IMG/VR virus record: IMGVR_UViG_3300032225_000686
DNA from: a virus
Lineage: Duplodnaviria; Caudoviricetes
DNA: 64,000 nt
Strand: one strand, 5' to 3'
Below are positions 49,326-56,613 of the stretch, piece by piece (the stretch's first letter is position 1; each line of letters begins with the position of its first letter). The notes under the pieces were generated by a model. It had not been told where the DNA came from. It saw only the letters and a list, made by a program, of their open reading frames with translations, and made no database searches. The translations under genes and the position numbers were made by a program.

Positions 49326-49430
49326 CGAGGGGACCAGAACACTTGGATTTTTACGGCCTTTTTCTTGGCCCTCGTTCTAAATACGGGTATACTTCGCACA
49401 CAGCGTACACAACGAACATGGAGATATACT

Positions 49431-50117
49431 ATGGCTCATGCTAATCAATACACAGGTAAGAATCATTTGGTTCGTGGGGTAGGTATAAATGACCTACCAA
49501 ATGAACCTATAGAATGGACTGAGAACGGCAAACGGGTACGCTGTCCAAAATATGTTTTGTGGAATGCAATTTTACAGAGATGTTACCGCCCGGGAAAATC
49601 TGAGATCATAGCATACAAAGGAGTCACGGTTCACCCCGATTGGATTTACCGTTCAAAGTTTAATGAATGGTTGAATAGCCAACCCCAAAACAATTGGCAA
49701 GAACTTCAAATTGACAAAGACCTGTTGGTAAAGGGCAACAAGGTTTACGGGCCTGATACCTGTTGCTTTTTGACTAATCAGGAGAATAATGTTTTTCGTC
49801 CTTTGACTTCAGATAGACTGGGATCTGCTGCTTTTGACAAATCTAAAAACTACAAAAAACCTTGGCGGGCTATGATTACTCAAAGCGGTATCAAAAGAAA
49901 TTTCGGTTACTTCTCAACCAAAGAAGAAGCAGAGTTTGTAGCCATGCGAGAGTTCATGCCGTATGTTATTGAAATTGCAAACGCTAATCCTCACAGGTTT
50001 ATTAGAGATGCCATGTACCGATGGATAGACGATTGGAAGCAGGAGTTGGCGGTACTAGAGGAAAAGGCAAGAGTGGCTACTTCTAGGAATGCTTTGCCGC
50101 TTTTTGAAATAAAGTGA
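49431..50117 (+). CDS. HNH homing-endonuclease-like protein with AP2-like C-terminal domain
   Basis: GVGIND, W-x2-ILQRCY, Y-x-GVTV-x2-DW, LQIDKDLL-x2-GNKVY-x-P-x-TCCF, WRAMI...GYF-x-T-x-EEA; GGAG RBS. Confidence 0.85.
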   Translation: MAHANQYTGKNHLVRGVGINDLPNEPIEWTENGKRVRCPKYVLWNAILQRCYRPGKSEIIAYKGVTVHPDWIYRSKFNEWLNSQPQNNWQELQIDKDLLVKGNKVYGPDTCCFLTNQENNVFRPLTSDRLGSAAFDKSKNYKKPWRAMITQSGIKRNFGYFSTKEEAEFVAMREFMPYVIEIANANPHRFIRDAMYRWIDDWKQELAVLEEKARVATSRNALPLFEIK

Positions 50118-50707
50118 GCAACCTAGACTTTCTAAATTTGTATTGGGAGACCTGCGATTCTGTTAGCAGCATTCGAAAGAGTAGACATTTCTTAAAGTTG
50201 GATGAACTACTGACAGAACAGATATCAGGGATAGGGATAAGAGAAGACCCGATATCAACAAGGTACAAGGGAACCAAACGATGGGATATGCACTTTCCTG
50301 ATAAGAAGGTAGCCATCGAATACAAGACCCTATCTTCGTTCAGTAAGAATGGAACTAGTGGAGGGAGTCTAGGAAAGGGATTGGGGAACCGTCTAGAAGA
50401 GGCTATCGGTTCAGCATTCGATCTCAAACAGAAAGATTCAAATTATAGGTTGGGCTATCTGATCGTCTTTGTATTCAGGGACGAGAAGTCAAATTATGAT
50501 AGCGTAGTCAAGAGAGCGATAGATGTATTTGATAAGTTGATTGAGGATGGACTCTATGATTTCTTCTGCCCCCTGTTTACTAGGGGACTGAACACTCATG
50601 GGGAACTATCGGAAACTTACTCTTTCGATAGGTTTATTGGTGATATTAGGGCGGTTCGAATACCTGAATCCCACACTTTCCCACTATACCCCACTTCCCC
50701 CCACTAA
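50114..50707 (+). CDS. XhoI/PaeR7I-family PD-(D/E)xK restriction-endonuclease-like protein
   Basis: TKRWD...AIEYK...GNRLEEAIGSAFDL...LGYL matches recalled family pattern. Confidence 0.7.
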   Translation: MSNLDFLNLYWETCDSVSSIRKSRHFLKLDELLTEQISGIGIREDPISTRYKGTKRWDMHFPDKKVAIEYKTLSSFSKNGTSGGSLGKGLGNRLEEAIGSAFDLKQKDSNYRLGYLIVFVFRDEKSNYDSVVKRAIDVFDKLIEDGLYDFFCPLFTRGLNTHGELSETYSFDRFIGDIRAVRIPESHTFPLYPTSPH

Positions 50708-50865: not shown

Positions 50866-50894
50866 GAAATCGTGCCAGAATTTTACCAAGAGGG

Positions 50895-50922
50895 TTGACT
50901 TCCCCTAGCCATTGGTTATAAT
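50895..50922 (+). promoter_or_regulatory. Sigma70-type early promoter, leaderless
   Basis: TTGACT-16-TATAAT; AT-rich upstream; 6 nt to ATG 50929. Confidence 0.85.
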
Positions 50923-50928
50923 TGAGGT

Positions 50929-52161
50929 ATGAGCATGACCCGTGAACAGACCCGTACCGCCTTCGTGACCGCCGCCTACACCTTGACTGGTGGCGAGCCG
51001 GTCATCACCCGTCCGCAAGTTTTGGAAGCCGCCGCGAAAGCCGGTGTGCCGAACCCCGCGTGGCTGACGAACGATCCCGCCTATCGCGCCGGTCGTGGGC
51101 AGTACCGTCTGCCGCCGATGCACCAAGCGTCCCGTCCTGCCGTTCCTGCCGCCCCTGTGGAGGAGGCTCCGATGGCTACCGCCGCTGCCCCGTGCAGTCT
51201 GGTGGACCTGAACTTGTCCATGCAGGCGATTGAGGCGGGTGGCTCTGCGGTCCCCTCCAAGGATTCGCTGTTCGTGCCGTATGGCGATCACGACACCATC
51301 GTGACCATCATCAAGAGCCGCCGATGGGCCCCTTCCTATGTGGTCGGTCCCTCGGGTTGCGGTAAGACCTTCTCGTATCAGCAGGCGTGTGCCGAACTGA
51401 GCCGCGAGTACTTCGAAGTCCAGATCACCTCGGAGACCACCGAAGACGATCTGCTCGGTGGGTTCCGTCTGGTTGCAGGAGAGACCAAGTTCGTCTACGG
51501 TCCCGTGGCTCTCGCCATGCTCCGTGGCGGGTTCCTTGTCCTTGACGAGATTGACCAAGCCACCAACAAGGTGATGTGCCTTCAGCAGGTTCTCAACGGC
51601 AAGCCCGTGTTCCTGAAGAAGATCAACCAGTGGGTCAAGCCCGCCGCAGGATTCAATGTGGGTGCGACCGCCAACACCAAGGGCAACGGTGACGAGAGCG
51701 GCCGATTCGTCGGGGCTAACCCGCTGAATGTGGCCTTCCGCGACCGCCTGTCAGGCATGACCTTCGTCGCTGATTACCCCGCCGCTGCCGTGGAGCGCAA
51801 GATTCTCGGCAAGGCTATGGAAGCCGTGGGCGTGAGCGACGAGGAGTTCGGCAAGCGTCTGGTGGAGTGGGCAGGCGTGATTCGCAAGACCAACCGTGAG
51901 GGCGGTATGGAAGAGACCATCACCACTCGCCGACTGGTTCAGATCTCGCAGAACCTCGCCATCCTCGGGAGCCGCGTGAAGTGTGTGGAACTCGGAACCA
52001 ACATCTACGACGAGGTGACCCGCGAAGCCATGCTCAACCTGTACAAGAAGGTTGACGAGGAGGCCGAACCGAAGGTGAAGGGGCAGGATGATCTCGGCAA
52101 GGCTCCCGTCGCTGCGGGAACCACCGCTGCCGCCGCCAACACCAACGCCTGTCCGTTCTGA
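50929..52161 (+). CDS. MoxR/CobS-like AAA+ ATPase with extra N-terminal domain
   Basis: GPSGCGKT, EDDLLGG, LVLDEID, ATANTKG, AFRDR, ITTRRL. Confidence 0.9.
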   Translation: MSMTREQTRTAFVTAAYTLTGGEPVITRPQVLEAAAKAGVPNPAWLTNDPAYRAGRGQYRLPPMHQASRPAVPAAPVEEAPMATAAAPCSLVDLNLSMQAIEAGGSAVPSKDSLFVPYGDHDTIVTIIKSRRWAPSYVVGPSGCGKTFSYQQACAELSREYFEVQITSETTEDDLLGGFRLVAGETKFVYGPVALAMLRGGFLVLDEIDQATNKVMCLQQVLNGKPVFLKKINQWVKPAAGFNVGATANTKGNGDESGRFVGANPLNVAFRDRLSGMTFVADYPAAAVERKILGKAMEAVGVSDEEFGKRLVEWAGVIRKTNREGGMEETITTRRLVQISQNLAILGSRVKCVELGTNIYDEVTREAMLNLYKKVDEEAEPKVKGQDDLGKAPVAAGTTAAAANTNACPF

Positions 52162-52270
52162 GGGGAAAGCGGGATTGATTTTCAAAAAGTGTTAGATAGC
52201 ATCAGCGAACATTTAAAATCAAACACCGACTACTACGCAATCAACGCCTAACAAAATCGTCAGAAACTTC

Positions 52271-52298
52271 TTGACATCAAACTGAAACCTGTTATAAT
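52271..52298 (+). promoter_or_regulatory. Sigma70-type early promoter
   Basis: Perfect TTGACA-16-TATAAT. Confidence 0.85.
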
Positions 52299-52311
52299 AG
52301 GAGAAATCAAA

Positions 52312-52632
52312 ATGACTACGACCAACACCACACTCACGATCAAGCCGCGTCAGGCTAACTTCCTAGCCGCGTTTGAACTCAAGTACGGCCGCCCTGCTAC
52401 CGTCACCCGTAAGGCTCTTGTCTCGTTCAAGCAGACTTGGGCTAACGGGGAGAAGGGTCCGTTTGGATTCACTCTGCGTTGGCCTGCGTGGCTCACGAAC
52501 TCCAGTAACTTTACTGTTCAGCGAGCGATCTATGCCCTCCCGTGGAATGAGTATGATGCATTCTTGGCTTCTGCATCAAACGGTTCGCAGCCGGTTACTC
52601 CCACGGATGCCGCTGATCCTGCGACGAACTGA
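52312..52632 (+). CDS. Stand-alone homologue of the AAA ATPase N-terminal domain
   Basis: TVTR...PAWLTN...R-x2-Y-x-LP shared with the first ~62 aa of 50929. Confidence 0.75.
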   Translation: MTTTNTTLTIKPRQANFLAAFELKYGRPATVTRKALVSFKQTWANGEKGPFGFTLRWPAWLTNSSNFTVQRAIYALPWNEYDAFLASASNGSQPVTPTDAADPATN

Positions 52633-52780
52633 GGGAGCCGTGGACACTCCGGTTAGAGTGTCAACCCCCGCTGCTCAAGACCTTGAATCTTGAGGAGCAA
52701 CCCCCCTCGGAAGTTGAAAGACTTCCAAGGGATTTCAACCTAGTAGTGCCACCAAGGCCGGTCGCACTACGCATTCTCAA
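52633..52780 (+). ncRNA. Structured intergenic/leader RNA (four hairpins, possible pseudoknot)
   Basis: GACACTC/GAGTGTC, CTCAAGA/TCTTGAG, GGAAGTT-GAAA-GACTTCC and GTAGTGC/GCACTAC stems. Confidence 0.5.
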
Positions 52781-52792
52781 AGGAGATTTACT

Positions 52793-53092
52793 ATGGCCAT
52801 TACTGCTGCCCGTCGTACCAACAAGACCCGTCGCTCTCGCGTTGCTGCTCAGAACCTCATGGAAGGTGATGAGTTCATCATGCACGGCGAGCCGAACATC
52901 TTCGTTGATCGCATCAGCCGCAACGAGGATCGCGGCACGGTTCGCGTCACCTTCAGCAACGGCATGAAGCGTAACTATTCGTGGGGCTACAAGGCTCTCA
53001 TCGTTGAGACCCCGAGCCGCCACAACTTCCGTCGCAACACTCTGCGCCGCGCTGGTTACCCCAACTACTACGAGTACACCTGTGGTATCTAA
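52793..53092 (+). CDS. Small Arg-rich protein (SH3/KOW-like pattern)
   Basis: AAGGAG RBS; island-type codon usage. Confidence 0.75.
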   Translation: MAITAARRTNKTRRSRVAAQNLMEGDEFIMHGEPNIFVDRISRNEDRGTVRVTFSNGMKRNYSWGYKALIVETPSRHNFRRNTLRRAGYPNYYEYTCGI

Positions 53093-53119
53093 TATTCACA
53101 TTGTATAAGGAATTTCAGA

Positions 53120-53290
53120 TTCCAAGCATTGCGTCTTGGGTCTCTAGTTCCAATCACTAAATTACTGGTTGGTGGGTGGGGGCTAGGCGATTATAATGAA
53201 CTCCTGTGGAACACGCCTAGTTCCCCTACCGCCGACCGGACAAAGAAGAGACTTCGGTCCTGCCCCTACTTCGGTGGGGGCTATTTGTTA
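53120..53290 (+). ncRNA. Rod-like structured RNA ending in a UUCG terminator
   Basis: 53165-53189 pairs with 53214-53239 (several G-U pairs); 53138-53145 pairs with 53247-53254. Confidence 0.5.
53262..53289 (+). terminator. Rho-independent terminator
   Basis: GCCCCTAC-TTCG-GTGGGGGC followed by TATTTGTT. Confidence 0.75.
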
Positions 53291-53309
53291 TCGGACCCAA
53301 AAATAGTTC

Positions 53310-53337
53310 TTGACTTTTCTCAAATCGGGTGTATAAT
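53310..53337 (+). promoter_or_regulatory. Sigma70-type promoter with no ORF immediately downstream
   Basis: TTGACT-16-TATAAT. Confidence 0.8.
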
Positions 53338-53343
53338 AATAGT

Positions 53344-53398
53344 ACCGCAGTTGGGTGTCAACGAGGCTGTTGTGGTCTCACACCCCCCTGCGGCTTCT
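53344..53398 (+). ncRNA. Putative ~50-nt hairpin small RNA
   Basis: CCGCAG/CTGCGG, GGGTGT/ACACCC and GAGGC/GTCTC stems starting at the predicted TSS. Confidence 0.55.
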
Positions 53399-53419
53399 AA
53401 AAAATCTTGATCGTGGGGC

Positions 53420-53447
53420 TTGACTTTCCCCACCAACTCGCTATAAT
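53420..53447 (+). promoter_or_regulatory. Sigma70-type early promoter, leaderless
   Basis: TTGACT-16-TATAAT; 8 nt to ATG 53456. Confidence 0.85.
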
Positions 53448-53455
53448 AAAAAAGT

Positions 53456-55774
53456 ATGACACAGACCCTCTCAAAGACAACCGTTGAATCCAAGGCAGTC
53501 CTCGCTCGCATGTTGGCCACCGAGAACCTGTCGGTGGAACACAACCCCAAGGCGGAGACCGCCTACTTCGATATCGAGAATCGGAAGTTGGTCTTCCCGT
53601 GTTGGGAGGGCATGACCGATCACCTGTACGATATGCTGGCAGGTCATGAGACCGCCCATGCCCTGTTCACGCCCGCCGGTGAAGCCGCCCTGTTCGAAGC
53701 CATCAAGGCAGTTGACCCGCGTCCTGAAGCCGCGTCTGCCGTGAAGGGTTACCTGAACATCGTGGAGGATGCCCGAATTGAGCGACTGGTCAAGGAGAAG
53801 TATCCGGGTCTGCGTCGGACCTTCTTCCTCGCCTATCAGGATCTGGTGAAGAGCGATATCATGGCTCCCGCCGTGCATCAGATTGCCACGCTGCGTCTGA
53901 TCGACCGAGCCAACATGCACTACAAGGTTGGAACCTTCGTGAATGTCCCCTTCACCGATGCGGAACTGCGTCTGGTGAAGCGAATGGCTACCACCAAGAC
54001 CTTCGAAGATGTGGTGGCTCTCGCCCGCGACCTGTGGCAGCATGAGAAGGATGAGAAGAAGAAGCAGGAGGAAGAGCAGAAGCAGCAGGAGTCGCAGCAG
54101 GGTTCTTCCGCTTCCTCTCCCGAAGGCGAAGAGGGCGAAGAGTCCGAGGCTAGCGGTAGCGATTCGCAGCAGCAGGAGAACGGCGAAGAGAACAAGGGCA
54201 AGGGTAAGAGCAAGAAGACCGAGGGCGAAGAGAAGCCTTCCGAAGAGAACAGCGGCGGTGGCAACTCCACGCCGAACAATGGTCAGGAGACCGAGGGTGG
54301 CGAAGGCGATAACAGCCCCAACAGCGGTGGCGAGCCGATGCCCGAGGAGAGCAAGACCGATGGGATGCTGAATGAGTACAGCAAGTCGAAGCGGAATGAA
54401 AAGGCCAACTACTTCGTGACCGCCGACCTGCCGAAGTTCAACACCGCGAAGGGCATCATCCCCGCTAGCACGGTGGTCCCGATGCTCGTTGAGTGTGGTG
54501 AGAAGAACAACGGTCTGAAGTTCTTCACCGAGTGGAAGGAGCGCAATGCCGAGAGCGTTGCCGTCCTGTGCCGCGAGTTCGAACGCCGCCGCGCTGCCGA
54601 AGCCGCGAGCCGTACCTCCATGAGCGATTCGGGAACGATTGATGTGAACCGCCTGTGGTCCTACCGCGTGAGCGACGAGATCTTCCGTCAGTACGCAAAT
54701 GTGAAGAATGGTCAGAGCCACGGCATTCAAGTGTTCGTGGACTTCAGCGGCTCCATGAGTGGCATCCTGTACGAGACCATGAGTCAGATGGTTTCCCTCG
54801 CTGCCTTCTGCCGCCGAATGAACATCCCCTTCGATGTCTACGCCTTCACCGATGGTCTGCCGACGCAATGGCTGACCGATGTGGATGGCGAGACCCTGCG
54901 GACAATGGGTTCGGATGGCTACAATAAGGAAATGAGTCCTTGGATTCAGACCGAGAAGACTATGAGAATGAGTCACACTCACTTCCGTCTGGTTCATCTG
55001 CTGACGAGTGGTCTGTCGGAGCGAAACTTCCGCATGGCCGTGGGTGGTATGCTCGCCATCGTTTCCCGTGCCGTGGCGGATAGCGATTGGGGTAGCGGCA
55101 AGGCCAATCGTAGTGCGGCTCAACTGTTCCGCCTGAATGGAACCCCGACCAATCAGGCAACGCTCGCCGCGATGACCATCATCCCCGAGTTCCGTAAGAA
55201 GAACAATCTGCAAATCGTCCACGCGGTCTTCCTGACCGATGGAGAGAGTGGTGACCGCTTCTCTGGTCCGACCAAGTACGAGAACATTTACGGTCGCAGC
55301 ACCGTTGATGTCTACGGTTACGAACTGCGCGATAGCGTGACGGGTAACACCGAGAAGGCGATGAATTCCTACTGCGCGACGAGTCAGAACCGTGCGCTGA
55401 ATCACCTGCTCGCCAAGCGTATCCCCGGCTGCAATGTGATCGGCATCTCCCTCTGCCCGACCCGCGAGTTCCGAACCAAGATGTCTGACGGTCTCGCCAA
55501 GCGGAAGAATCGCTACGGCTTCGATGTCGAGATGGAAGCCGCAAAGGTGAAGGGCTTCTGCGAGGCTGAGGACTGCTACGGTTACACCAAGTGGTTTGGA
55601 ATGAACGCTCCCCACCTTGATTCGAATGACTACTTCATGGGCATCACCGACGATGCACCGAAGGCAGTACTGACCAAGGCATTCGCCAAGACGATCAAGC
55701 AGGGTACGATGAACCGTCTGCTCCTGAGCCGCTTCGTGGACCTGATCGCTAATCACGGCGCGAAGAAGAATTGA
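53456..55774 (+). CDS. CobT-like zincin (HExxH) + acidic linker + vWA (MIDAS) protein; partner of the AAA ATPase
   Basis: LA-x2-LATENL-x-VEH, TAYFD, GHETAHALFT, NIVEDARIE, DFSGSM, GTP, LTDGE. Confidence 0.88.
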   Translation: MTQTLSKTTVESKAVLARMLATENLSVEHNPKAETAYFDIENRKLVFPCWEGMTDHLYDMLAGHETAHALFTPAGEAALFEAIKAVDPRPEAASAVKGYLNIVEDARIERLVKEKYPGLRRTFFLAYQDLVKSDIMAPAVHQIATLRLIDRANMHYKVGTFVNVPFTDAELRLVKRMATTKTFEDVVALARDLWQHEKDEKKKQEEEQKQQESQQGSSASSPEGEEGEESEASGSDSQQQENGEENKGKGKSKKTEGEEKPSEENSGGGNSTPNNGQETEGGEGDNSPNSGGEPMPEESKTDGMLNEYSKSKRNEKANYFVTADLPKFNTAKGIIPASTVVPMLVECGEKNNGLKFFTEWKERNAESVAVLCREFERRRAAEAASRTSMSDSGTIDVNRLWSYRVSDEIFRQYANVKNGQSHGIQVFVDFSGSMSGILYETMSQMVSLAAFCRRMNIPFDVYAFTDGLPTQWLTDVDGETLRTMGSDGYNKEMSPWIQTEKTMRMSHTHFRLVHLLTSGLSERNFRMAVGGMLAIVSRAVADSDWGSGKANRSAAQLFRLNGTPTNQATLAAMTIIPEFRKKNNLQIVHAVFLTDGESGDRFSGPTKYENIYGRSTVDVYGYELRDSVTGNTEKAMNSYCATSQNRALNHLLAKRIPGCNVIGISLCPTREFRTKMSDGLAKRKNRYGFDVEMEAAKVKGFCEAEDCYGYTKWFGMNAPHLDSNDYFMGITDDAPKAVLTKAFAKTIKQGTMNRLLLSRFVDLIANHGAKKN

Positions 55775-55797
55775 ATTTTCAAAAAGGAGAAAGACCA

Positions 55798-56184
55798 ATG
55801 TATCGCATGACCGTAATCACCGAACCGCAGAACGCAAGCCAAGAAAAACTTCCGCCTATCCCTCTTCATAAGGCATGGCTCTACCACACCGATACCAATA
55901 CATGGCTACTGCATCTAGAGGGACAGTTCACTGGTGTGGGCGTATCCGCTGTCCGAGCCAACGCTGGAGTTTCTCTGTACGATCTCTACGGACACTTCCG
56001 CCCTGTAGAAATTCAAATCACCTGCACCAACAAGGATGAGTTTTTGAAACTTCGTGGTTCTCACAAGGTCTCACAGATCATGTTGGGTGACCCTGAAGAT
56101 GGTGGAGTGGATCATATCAGCGTGTCTATGACCAACATCACTAACGACAAGTGGACTGATGTAGCGAAGTGGAGCCGCGACTGA
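55798..56184 (+). CDS. Hypothetical protein
   Basis: AAGGAG RBS before ATG 55798. Confidence 0.7.
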   Translation: MYRMTVITEPQNASQEKLPPIPLHKAWLYHTDTNTWLLHLEGQFTGVGVSAVRANAGVSLYDLYGHFRPVEIQITCTNKDEFLKLRGSHKVSQIMLGDPEDGGVDHISVSMTNITNDKWTDVAKWSRD

Positions 56185-56206
56185 ACTAACGAGCGTTTGA
56201 GGGTCT

Positions 56207-56245
56207 GACCCCTGTAGGTGTAAAAGCCTACGGGGGTTTTTGTTT
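56207..56245 (+). terminator. Rho-independent terminator
   Basis: ACCCCTGTAGGT-GTAAAA-GCCTACGGGGGT plus T tract. Confidence 0.85.
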
Positions 56246-56613
56246 ATTGGGATTAGACTGGGTTAACTGGTGGCTGGACCAGCCGGTGGCTATGCGGTCT
56301 CGCCCGATTCAACTTTAAAACTAAACTTCGGGAATGTGGGGGCGTGGGAGCGGGAACAACAAAATGCGATCTGCGAAAAAATTCAAGGTATGGGTTGACT
56401 TCCCCAGAAAACGACCCCCCTGTTTTAGTTTTGCGAGCGGCGGGTTCCCATCCAAGCAAGGGCCGAGTGCCGAGAAAATTATGGAGTCCGCAGGTTCGCC
56501 CAAATAAAGACCCCCCCCCCTTTAATCCACCTCGTTGATTTCAGTTGCCCCGAAATGCCTTTTACCCCCGAGGTAAAAATCTTCCAAAAACAGGTCTGAT
56601 CCTAAATATCATC

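Follow-up and report, generated by a model that had tools for sequence, protein, structure and literature searches.

Neighbouring cobS/cobT-like genes, encoding an AAA+ ATPase and a partner with a von Willebrand factor A (vWA) domain, are among the most widespread phage gene pairs of unproven function. The pair is core in ocean cyanophages and is shared by pelagiphages, jumbo phages and many plasmids as well. To explain it, two rival ideas have been published, a vitamin B12 boost and virion assembly, neither of which we would rate as better than doubtful. The two-gene viral cobST cluster is widespread in tailed viruses, core in T4-like cyanophages and present in pelagiphage HTVC008M; its cobT is usually misannotated as a peptidase, and hijacking of host CobN has been suggested (Liu et al., 2021, PLoS Biol, PMC8651126). 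T4-like jumbo phages of group 2.2 encode a MoxR/metallopeptidase-vWA pair for which participation in virion assembly has been proposed (Iyer et al., 2021, Viruses 13:63, PMC7824862). [quoted passage not shown] Here we describe a GC-rich island in a 64,000-nucleotide stretch of the viral record IMGVR_UViG_3300032225_000686 (Caudoviricetes), hereafter the window. The first-pass annotation of this DNA had regarded such pairs as uncharacterised; given the two publications above, the block is a lineage variant of an already published viral cobS/cobT-like pair. We consider it reasonably probable that the island encodes a cobS/cobT-like motor of T4-like aquatic phages, an ATPase with its vWA adaptor, that the pair is expressed early from leaderless mRNAs, that its codon usage is an old trait, and that a two-gene unit, o106-o99, came to lie between the two genes. 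New here are the age of the codon bias, the identification of o106 as an ancient paralogue paired with o99, two conserved RNA elements and conserved promoters close to the ATG. The two motor genes are:

50929-52161, + strand: CobS-like MoxR-class AAA+ ATPase of 410 amino acids (AAA_5, E 2e-18; phrog_249, E 5e-88)
53456-55774, + strand: CobT-like adaptor of 772 amino acids (phrog_459 'peptidase', E 8e-160)

The ATPase starts with an N-domain (residues 1-62), from which an Ala/Pro linker leads to the AAA_5 core (residues ~105-386). The Pfam model PF07728 (AAA_5) scores 67 bits against a 22-bit cut-off, placing the protein in the MoxR class, and the Walker A (GPSGCGKT) and Walker B (LDEID) motifs are invariant in an alignment of the ATPase with ten homologues (A1). 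Compared with solved structures, the ATPase profile finds CobS (9ujv) first (E 1e-29), followed by midasin, NorQ and CbbQ. Relatives were collected by scanning viral contigs with the ATPase alignment, which yielded 80 loci; the closest CobS homologues are P0002 (88%) and P0022, and the nearest relative of the window is IMGVR_UViG_3300045125_000034 (loci L003 and L097). The gene for the vWA partner lies 1.3 kb downstream of the ATPase gene and is adjacent to it in nearly all of the ~80 related loci, as well as in isolates such as HTVC008M and S-RIM4. In isolates the pair sits between gp46/47 and gp45, the adaptor first and then the ATPase, and both gene order and orientation vary among clades. 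The ATPase ends in Pro-Phe (window 52156-52161), a dipeptide invariant in 11/11 aligned ATPases behind a variable tail, which may serve as a docking motif.

In the adaptor, a zincin-like N-domain (residues 1-214, with HETAH at 64-68) is followed by an acidic disordered linker (215-291), a shaft (320-418) and a vWA domain whose MIDAS residues are D429, S431, S433, T563 and D595. An AlphaFold2 model (mean predicted local distance difference test score, pLDDT, of 71.5) predicts α1, a three-strand sheet and eight helices within residues 1-214, then the disordered acidic linker, and after it β0, two long helices (α0'/α0), a low-confidence finger (320-418) and the vWA domain. The predicted architecture, from N-domain through linker and shaft to a vWA domain with a DxSxS MIDAS, is thus that of CobT. 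By fold comparison the vWA domain is closest to MDN1 (Z 17.6), Rea1 (Z 16.6) and NorD (Z 15.3), with generic vWA domains reaching at most 12.8; a search with the whole 772-residue model gave weak Foldseek E-values and was dominated by the vWA domain. The N-domain (alignment A3) could be aligned by hhalign to the CobT of an Acinetobacter plasmid (97.9%, E 5e-13, 163 columns), a protein that passes the cut-offs of both Pfam CobT models, PF06213 and PF11775, and that carries Q-E-x-x-K where the phage adaptor has H-E-x-x-H. Alignments of 10 and of 30 family members, the latter at 25-44% identity, identified H64-E65-x-x-H68, N101/E104/D105/R107 (EDARIE), D429-x-S431-G-S433, T563 and D595 as invariant; H64, E65 and H68 are kept in all 30 sequences, so that HExxH is conserved family-wide. 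The invariant E104/D105 could supply a third metal ligand. Because HExxH and the acidic EDARIE motif are invariant in the phage family, the N-domain would be expected to bind metal and probably cuts a client or loads it with metal. The AAA_5 match, the HExxH motif and the MIDAS together verify the earlier description of a MoxR/CobS-type ATPase beside a zincin-motif vWA partner.

These features raise the question of whether the pair is a true cobaltochelatase motor, in which viral CobS and CobT dock on host CobN and raise the cobalamin supply for nucleotide synthesis (PMC8651126). CobS being the nearest solved relative and the adaptor having the CobT architecture, including shaft and MIDAS, would suit such a role, as would the holoenzyme, where CobN contacts the MIDAS face and the N-domain, and the published proposal with its wide viral distribution (PMC8651126). 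The details fit less well. The CobS equivalog model TIGR01650 is missed widely and the Pfam models CobT and CobT_C find no direct match; the phage HExxH is invariant, as opposed to Q-E-x-x-K in the CobT-positive plasmid protein; the solved CobS of 328 residues does not cover the extra N-domain of the phage ATPase; and the same pair occurs in a pelagiphage and on Acinetobacter and enterobacterial plasmids. Pelagibacter, Acinetobacter and enterobacterial hosts would not be expected to use an aerobic route that depends on CobN. We therefore hold the CobN route as a tentative alternative, well short of probable, to the preferred reading of a cobS/cobT-like motor.

The pair stands out from the rest of the window by its composition. 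GC content is 54-65% at 50.9-55.8 kb; in the successive 1-kb windows across 51-56 kb it is 0.625, 0.537, 0.537, 0.579 and 0.556, compared to 0.40-0.51 elsewhere (~44%), and the left edge is sharp, with a rise from 0.40-0.47 to 0.63-0.70 within ~100 nucleotides (nt) at 50.9 kb. The GC content at third codon positions (GC3) is 0.766 for the CobS-like gene, 0.607 for o106, 0.720 for o99 and 0.744 for the vWA protein, whereas the 53 other open reading frames (ORFs) of the window average 0.463 ± 0.073, with a maximum of 0.619. At four-fold degenerate sites, A (A3) accounts for 0.06 in the island vs 0.35 in the rest, and C (C3) for 0.43 vs 0.21, A avoidance being the clearest island signal. The abrupt switch to C/G-ending codons that had been noticed from the sequence is therefore real (GC3 0.61-0.77 vs 0.46; A3 0.06 vs 0.35). 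The following gene, o137, has background-like codons (GC3 0.52, A3 0.27), which puts the end of the codon island at 55774, the stop codon of the vWA gene; of the block originally drawn at 50895-56245, the left edge stands and the last ~470 nt fall outside. The window as a whole exhibits an A3 gradient, from 0.34-0.49 in many structural genes, which we presume to be late, through 0.18-0.25 in genes preceded by predicted promoters to 0.00-0.11 in the island.

The same bias is found in relatives. The ATPase gene is richer in GC than its flanks in nearly all loci (+0.03 to +0.20), and in the nearest clade the cassette has a GC content of ~0.60 whatever that of the backbone (0.40-0.52), with a GC3 of 0.70-0.86. 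Within L004, L005, L006, L018, L053 and L026, the cobS-like and adaptor genes are GC3 and A3 outliers, the A3 of the pair in relatives being 0.03-0.14 vs 0.23-0.32 in their other genes. Third positions were compared with those of L004, L005, L006 and L064, relatives whose proteins are 36-72% identical. At conserved four-fold sites they agree in 0.37-0.47 of cases, where base composition by itself would predict 0.29-0.35; synonymous sites are close to saturated. A bias kept in relatives across such divergence makes a recent transfer unlikely and argues that the bias has been maintained: the C/G-ending, A-avoiding codons are an old, long-maintained trait.

This result bears directly on the possibility that the island was imported recently from a high-GC phage or host, perhaps via the neighbouring HNH endonuclease, and has not yet drifted. 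The sharp left edge, the HNH endonuclease and weakly XhoI-like ORF directly upstream, the constant cassette GC of ~0.60 and the varying order and orientation among clades would all agree with an import. However, relatives at 36-72% protein identity share the bias at nearly saturated synonymous sites, the nearest relative shares the layout of HNH gene and island, and the intergenic promoters share their putatively leaderless design with promoters elsewhere in the window. Nor was a close cellular relative found in a set of 185,579 species, one genome each, or a near-DNA match to the island or its flank among 50,697 phage records. The scan of genome contigs produced only contigs of metagenome-assembled genomes at 39-47% identity and hence no candidate donor. 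We consider a recent takeover import very unlikely and favour an old codon trait. The island codons may have been selected by the host tRNA pool and/or for heavy expression, and adaptation to a higher-GC host is plausible. Low-GC cyanomyoviruses are known to supplement the host tRNA pool for AT-rich codons (PMC3152331). By analogy, the A3 gradient fits this picture and suggests genes tuned for reading by the host pool alone.

The promoters of the island were scored against the 12 positions of the sigma70 consensus:

50895-50922, + strand: promoter P1, TTGACT-16-TATAAT, 11/12; the cobS-like ATG lies 6 nt past the -10 hexamer
52271-52298, + strand: promoter P2 of the o106-o99 unit, TTGACA-16-TATAAT with TG, 12/12
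53310-53398, + strand: promoter P3 with a ~50-nt hairpin (folding z = -2.0) and no ORF, 11/12; lineage-specific
53420-53447, + strand: promoter P4 of the CobT-like gene, 11/12; ATG 8 nt past the -10 hexamer

All four have 16-nt spacers, and only 9 other + strand sites of at least 10/12 occur in the remaining 61 kb. The four near-consensus promoters of the earlier description thus hold up, at 11-12/12 each, and they are conserved in relatives. In the nearest relative, three of the four are found at the same spacing, with a 12/12 equivalent of P1 and an identical P2 arrangement, P3 being the one that is missing. Equivalents of the adaptor promoter lie 6-9 nt before the ATG in L003, L004 and L005, at 6-7 nt in the latter two, and that of the ATPase lies 7 nt before the ATG in L005. 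For 7/13 promoters in the window, an ORF of at least 50 codons starts 6-8 nt past the -10 hexamer, compared to 5.6% of random positions (the seven are at 429, 22759, 25933, 41412, 46088, 50895 and 53420, all on the + strand). From this spacing, the phage seems to use leaderless mRNAs widely, and the island promoters seem to belong to this window-wide set, at ~4x its density. Taken together, the codons and the putatively leaderless host-type promoters suggest that the genes are expressed strongly or very early, with the tRNAs of the host. A literature search on leaderless early transcripts or on the expression class of cyanophage cobS returned nothing usable.

Expression timing is also where the second published idea can be weighed, namely that the pair is a chaperone and protease of virion assembly that folds or trims structural proteins (PMC7824862, with the ATV tail system as an analogy). 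That proposal, the invariant HExxH and the PHROG label 'peptidase' speak for it. Yet the promoters are of the host sigma70 type, the genes have replication and early-type genes as neighbours (gp46/47 on one side and gp45 on the other in isolates), and the codon usage of the pair is at the opposite extreme from that of the structural genes in the window. A virion-assembly role is in our judgement unlikely, and less probable than the CobN route.

The o106-o99 unit lies between the two motor genes and comprises the following elements:

52312-52632, + strand: o106, a small free-standing protein that is distantly paralogous to the CobS-like N-terminal domain
52704-52795, + strand: 5' untranslated region (5'UTR) element of o99, folding z = -4.4, conserved structure
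52793-53092, + strand: o99, a small basic conserved protein with the C-terminus FRRNTLRRAGYPNYY (alignment A4)
53150-53300, + strand: 3' structured RNA of the unit, in which a long G·U-rich hairpin of ~75 nt is followed by a C(UUCG)G hairpin and, at the end, by an intrinsic terminator

o106 is similar to residues 1-62 of the ATPase (BLASTP E 4e-4; hhalign 91-93%, E 4e-7 to 9e-7), and tblastn with o106 matches the 5' ends of cobS in L020 and L026. Searched against 1.84 billion representatives, the o106 profile retrieved only 50 clusters, nearly all of them stand-alone proteins of 78-186 residues (two are longer, at 219 and 295 residues), and there was no CobS among these HMMER matches. The paralogy between o106 and the CobS N-domain thus rests on profile-profile and small-database evidence, and, because the library matches are small and include no CobS, o106 represents an old separate family. 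The free copy of the ATPase N-domain that had been proposed is accordingly a free relative (hhalign 91-93%), belonging to an ancient paralogue family rather than being a recent copy. For the predicted o106 structure (pLDDT 70), fold matches reached Z 3.1 at most, none of them significant, so the idea of a nucleic-acid-targeted machine finds no support here; winged-helix proteins recur in the match list at chance level only, and we do not claim this fold. For o99, Pfam, PHROG, NCBIfam and Atlas gave no lead to any family. o106 is directly followed by o99 in 13/13 viral loci. On two long contigs, the o106-o99 pair is located 13-14 kb from cobS, and it is missing from marine relatives. This distant placement and marine absence indicate a unit that is linked to the motor genes yet separable from them; with o106-o99 13-14 kb from cobS in some relatives, the four-protein machine envisaged in the first-pass annotation is not established. 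In L004 (7014-8208) and L005 (11254-12424), a ~1.1-kb spacer between cobS and o106 contains no convincing conserved coding-strand ORF and may hold further non-coding RNA.

Among plasmids, 2,167 records contain CobS-like ATPases, including records from Klebsiella, Escherichia and Acinetobacter. On one Acinetobacter plasmid (L110, NZ_CP046537.1, 87586-96275), the CobT gene and the ATPase gene lie beside dnaE, and the ATPase N-terminus has a weak ROS/MucR-like match (E 1.5e-4), so the N-terminal add-ons of such ATPases vary. We considered this N-terminus as a relative of o106 and rejected it as unrelated.

Two intergenic stretches of the unit fold more stably than expected, 52633-52792 (z = -5.3) and 53093-53300 (z = -4.45); the P3 hairpin (z = -2.0) does not stand out. 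The o99 leader runs from hairpin A over a single-stranded GAUUUC(A)AACCUAG to hairpin B and a mini-hairpin over the Shine-Dalgarno sequence, and this architecture recurs with different stem sequences in four lineages (z = -3.5 to -4.8 against dinucleotide shuffles). An Infernal covariance model (R1), built from the sequences of the window and of L097, has full-length matches only before o99, in L102, L105, L098, L104 and L103 (E 1e-8 to 1e-4). In an alignment of five sequences, fitted to the structure model and covering ~3 independent lineages, 97.4% of cells are paired and 21/25 pairs have changed on both sides, compared to 37-53% pairing and 3-5 such pairs in slid controls. Covariation thus gives good, if not final, evidence that the predicted leader structure is conserved. 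A MAFFT/RNAalifold consensus of the leader failed, the stems having diverged. Weaker second R1 matches (L103:698-761, L104:3715-3780 and L105:3726-3801) lie inside the longer o106-o99 spacer that these phages have (~320 nt) and suggest a tandem duplication of the hairpin unit. As for the 3' element, which ends in the terminator of the unit (53262-53281 and a T-run), all substitutions relative to L097 keep pairing, and its model (R2) matches directly after o99 in L098 (E 5e-5), where the apical loop motif is kept. Of the three structured segments originally reported, then, the 5'UTR and 3' elements are conserved, whereas the P3 promoter-hairpin segment (53310-53398) is wholly absent from the nearest relative. 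Rfam 15 gave no gathering-score match in the window and only chance-level hits in its intergenic regions (E 0.6-0.7), and no tRNA or tmRNA was detected in the window. In the nearest clade, the small genes and two of the three RNA segments are conserved beside the pair and the compositional shift is present.

It is conceivable that these segments have no function of their own and are terminators, mRNA-stabilising hairpins or the product of GC-driven folding. GC-rich sequence folds readily, the 3' element does end in a terminator, the P3 hairpin is not conserved, the right-hand non-coding block is unremarkable, and the intergenic region IG2 measures only 12-35 nt in L106-L108. What such an explanation does not account for is a 5'UTR that keeps its architecture and single-stranded motif while the stems change, with 21/25 pairs altered on both sides where slid controls fail, and with z-scores of -3.5 to -4.8 in four lineages, nor for a 3' hairpin whose apical loop motif is kept in L098. 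We regard this explanation as rather unlikely. A more elaborate proposal would make the o106-o99 unit an RNA-regulated accessory of the CobS-like motor, with o106 as a free mimic of the N-domain (an adaptor, an anti-adaptor or a decoy for the partner of that domain) and o99 binding the 5'UTR element and/or the 3' hairpin, in feedback control or as an RNA-protein client. We consider this accessory role improbable; if true, an RNA component would be a dedicated part of this MoxR-vWA system, an arrangement that is undescribed for phage cobST pairs.

Returning to the preferred reading of a cobS/cobT-like motor pair, we propose the following mechanism. By analogy with the solved CobS-CobT, NorQ-NorD and CbbQ-CbbO complexes, the ATPase would form a hexameric ring. 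The zincin-like N-domain of the adaptor would dock on the small domain of the ring and the helical shaft would be threaded into its pore, such that ATP hydrolysis would pull on a client protein held at the adaptor MIDAS, while the metal site of the N-domain would probably also cut the client or load it with metal. The two genes would be read from separate host-type sigma70 promoters, with transcripts starting at or next to the ATG. In this lineage, o106-o99, with its own promoter, structured 5'UTR and 3' hairpin-terminator, would have come to lie between the pair, and o106 might, speculatively, compete with or hand over to the tethered N-domain of the ATPase. As for the client, our rough judgement is evenly balanced on a host protein other than CobN, clearly lower for host CobN, and lower again for virion or other phage proteins.

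Several observations weigh against this reading. The CobS equivalog TIGR01650 scores 49.2 bits against a cut-off of 558.55, and Pfam CobT (PF06213) and CobT_C (PF11775) have no match at E <=1 in 10 adaptor family members; for PF06213, the right ORF of L004 and L005 yields sub-threshold values (E 0.07-0.14), and sequence and profile searches of the adaptor against Pfam, NCBIfam and the PDB returned only low-complexity matches to the acidic linker. The pair also turns up in phages or on plasmids of Pelagibacter, Acinetobacter, Klebsiella and E. coli, which weakens the case for a single client such as CobN. The codon bias is not universal, being absent from the lowest-GC relatives (the L071 group), and biased gene conversion or repeated cassette exchange between phages could also keep GC3 high. 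Finally, the proposal that both pair genes are expressed early as leaderless mRNAs is read from the sequence only.

The wider window is part of a T4-like myovirus, as indicated by PHROG matches to a large terminase, tail sheath, portal, major capsid protein and gp46-like nuclease. The major capsid protein shares ~60% identity with its counterparts in pelagiphage Mosig, Synechococcus phages and methylophage Melnitz, and hence favours no one host group. The island is flanked by the following features:

49365-50117, + strand: HNH homing-endonuclease-like gene (phrog_953, E 1e-44; GC3 0.39), at the same place in the nearest relative and outside the codon island
55771-56184, + strand: o137, probable ATG start at 55799 after AGGAG; 69% identical in the nearest relative only; background codons
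56207-56238, + strand: strong intrinsic terminator closing the block, a 13-bp stem followed by a T-run

Within 49365-50707, the HNH gene (phrog_953) precedes an ORF of 197 residues whose XhoI-like match is weak (E 0.005); the two are the immediate upstream neighbours of the island, a placement shared by the nearest relative. In that relative, every gene of the region is frameshifted (HNH, cobS-like, vWA and o241), which looks like an indel-prone assembly rather than gene decay. Downstream, o137 is predicted to be co-transcribed with the vWA gene. The right-hand non-coding block (56185-56544) is not unusually stable (z = -0.8). Within it, at 56390-56420, GGGTTGACTTCCCC repeats the P1 -35 region (50892-50905) with no -10 hexamer downstream, and may be a promoter remnant. 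ATTTTCAAAA has exactly 3 copies in the 64 kb, all in the island and at gene borders: upstream of P1 (50835), just past the cobS-like stop codon (52178) and at the vWA stop codon (55775). It is not kept at those places in the nearest relative, and we rejected it as a regulatory site.

The locus places several constraints on both published ideas. In the adaptor, the putative zincin metal site is invariant, and a CobT-type plasmid protein is without it. The codons of the pair have stayed unlike those of the rest of the phage over saturating divergence, and they are combined with host-type, putatively leaderless promoters. In this one lineage, a free paralogue of the motor's extra N-domain is always accompanied by a small basic protein and by two conserved RNA structures without an Rfam match, which the locus adds as candidate new cis-regulatory RNA motifs.

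Compared to the viral cobST cluster (PMC8651126), the pair belongs to the same families (phrog_249 and phrog_459) and its genes are likewise neighbours, with the window ATPase 41-47% and the adaptor 28-32% identical to the proteins of isolates. Unlike there, the ATPase comes first, the pair is separated by two extra genes together with ~0.7 kb of structured non-coding RNA, and the codon bias is much stronger (GC3 0.75 vs ~0.5 in marine relatives). The jumbo-phage pair (PMC7824862), likened here by its description, also places a MoxR-class ATPase beside a vWA protein with an N-terminal zincin-type domain; a virion-assembly role was proposed there, whereas promoters and codons here suggest early expression by the host machinery. 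To the bacterial CobS-CobT of CobNST (10.64898/2026.07.21.739949, 10.64898/2026.10.09.757910), the resemblance extends from the ATPase core (E 1e-29 to CobS) to the adaptor, for which the predicted model has an M48C-like N-domain topology, a disordered linker of ~80-90 residues, a β0/α0'/α0 shaft and MIDAS residues numbered almost as in CobT. In contrast to the solved CobS of 328 residues, the phage ATPase has an extra 62-residue N-domain and an Ala/Pro linker, and the phage adaptor differs from bacterial CobT in keeping HExxH, the proteins scoring outside the Pfam and TIGRFAM CobS/CobT models and having no known CobN partner. NorQ-NorD, CbbQ-CbbO and midasin (Rea1/MDN1) likewise employ a MoxR-class ring that acts on a client via a MIDAS vWA domain. 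They lack a zincin-like HExxH N-domain, and their clients (NorB, Rubisco and pre-ribosomes) have no evident counterpart here, but it is to the MIDAS domains of these MoxR-class ring systems that the phage vWA domain is structurally closest (Z 15-18).

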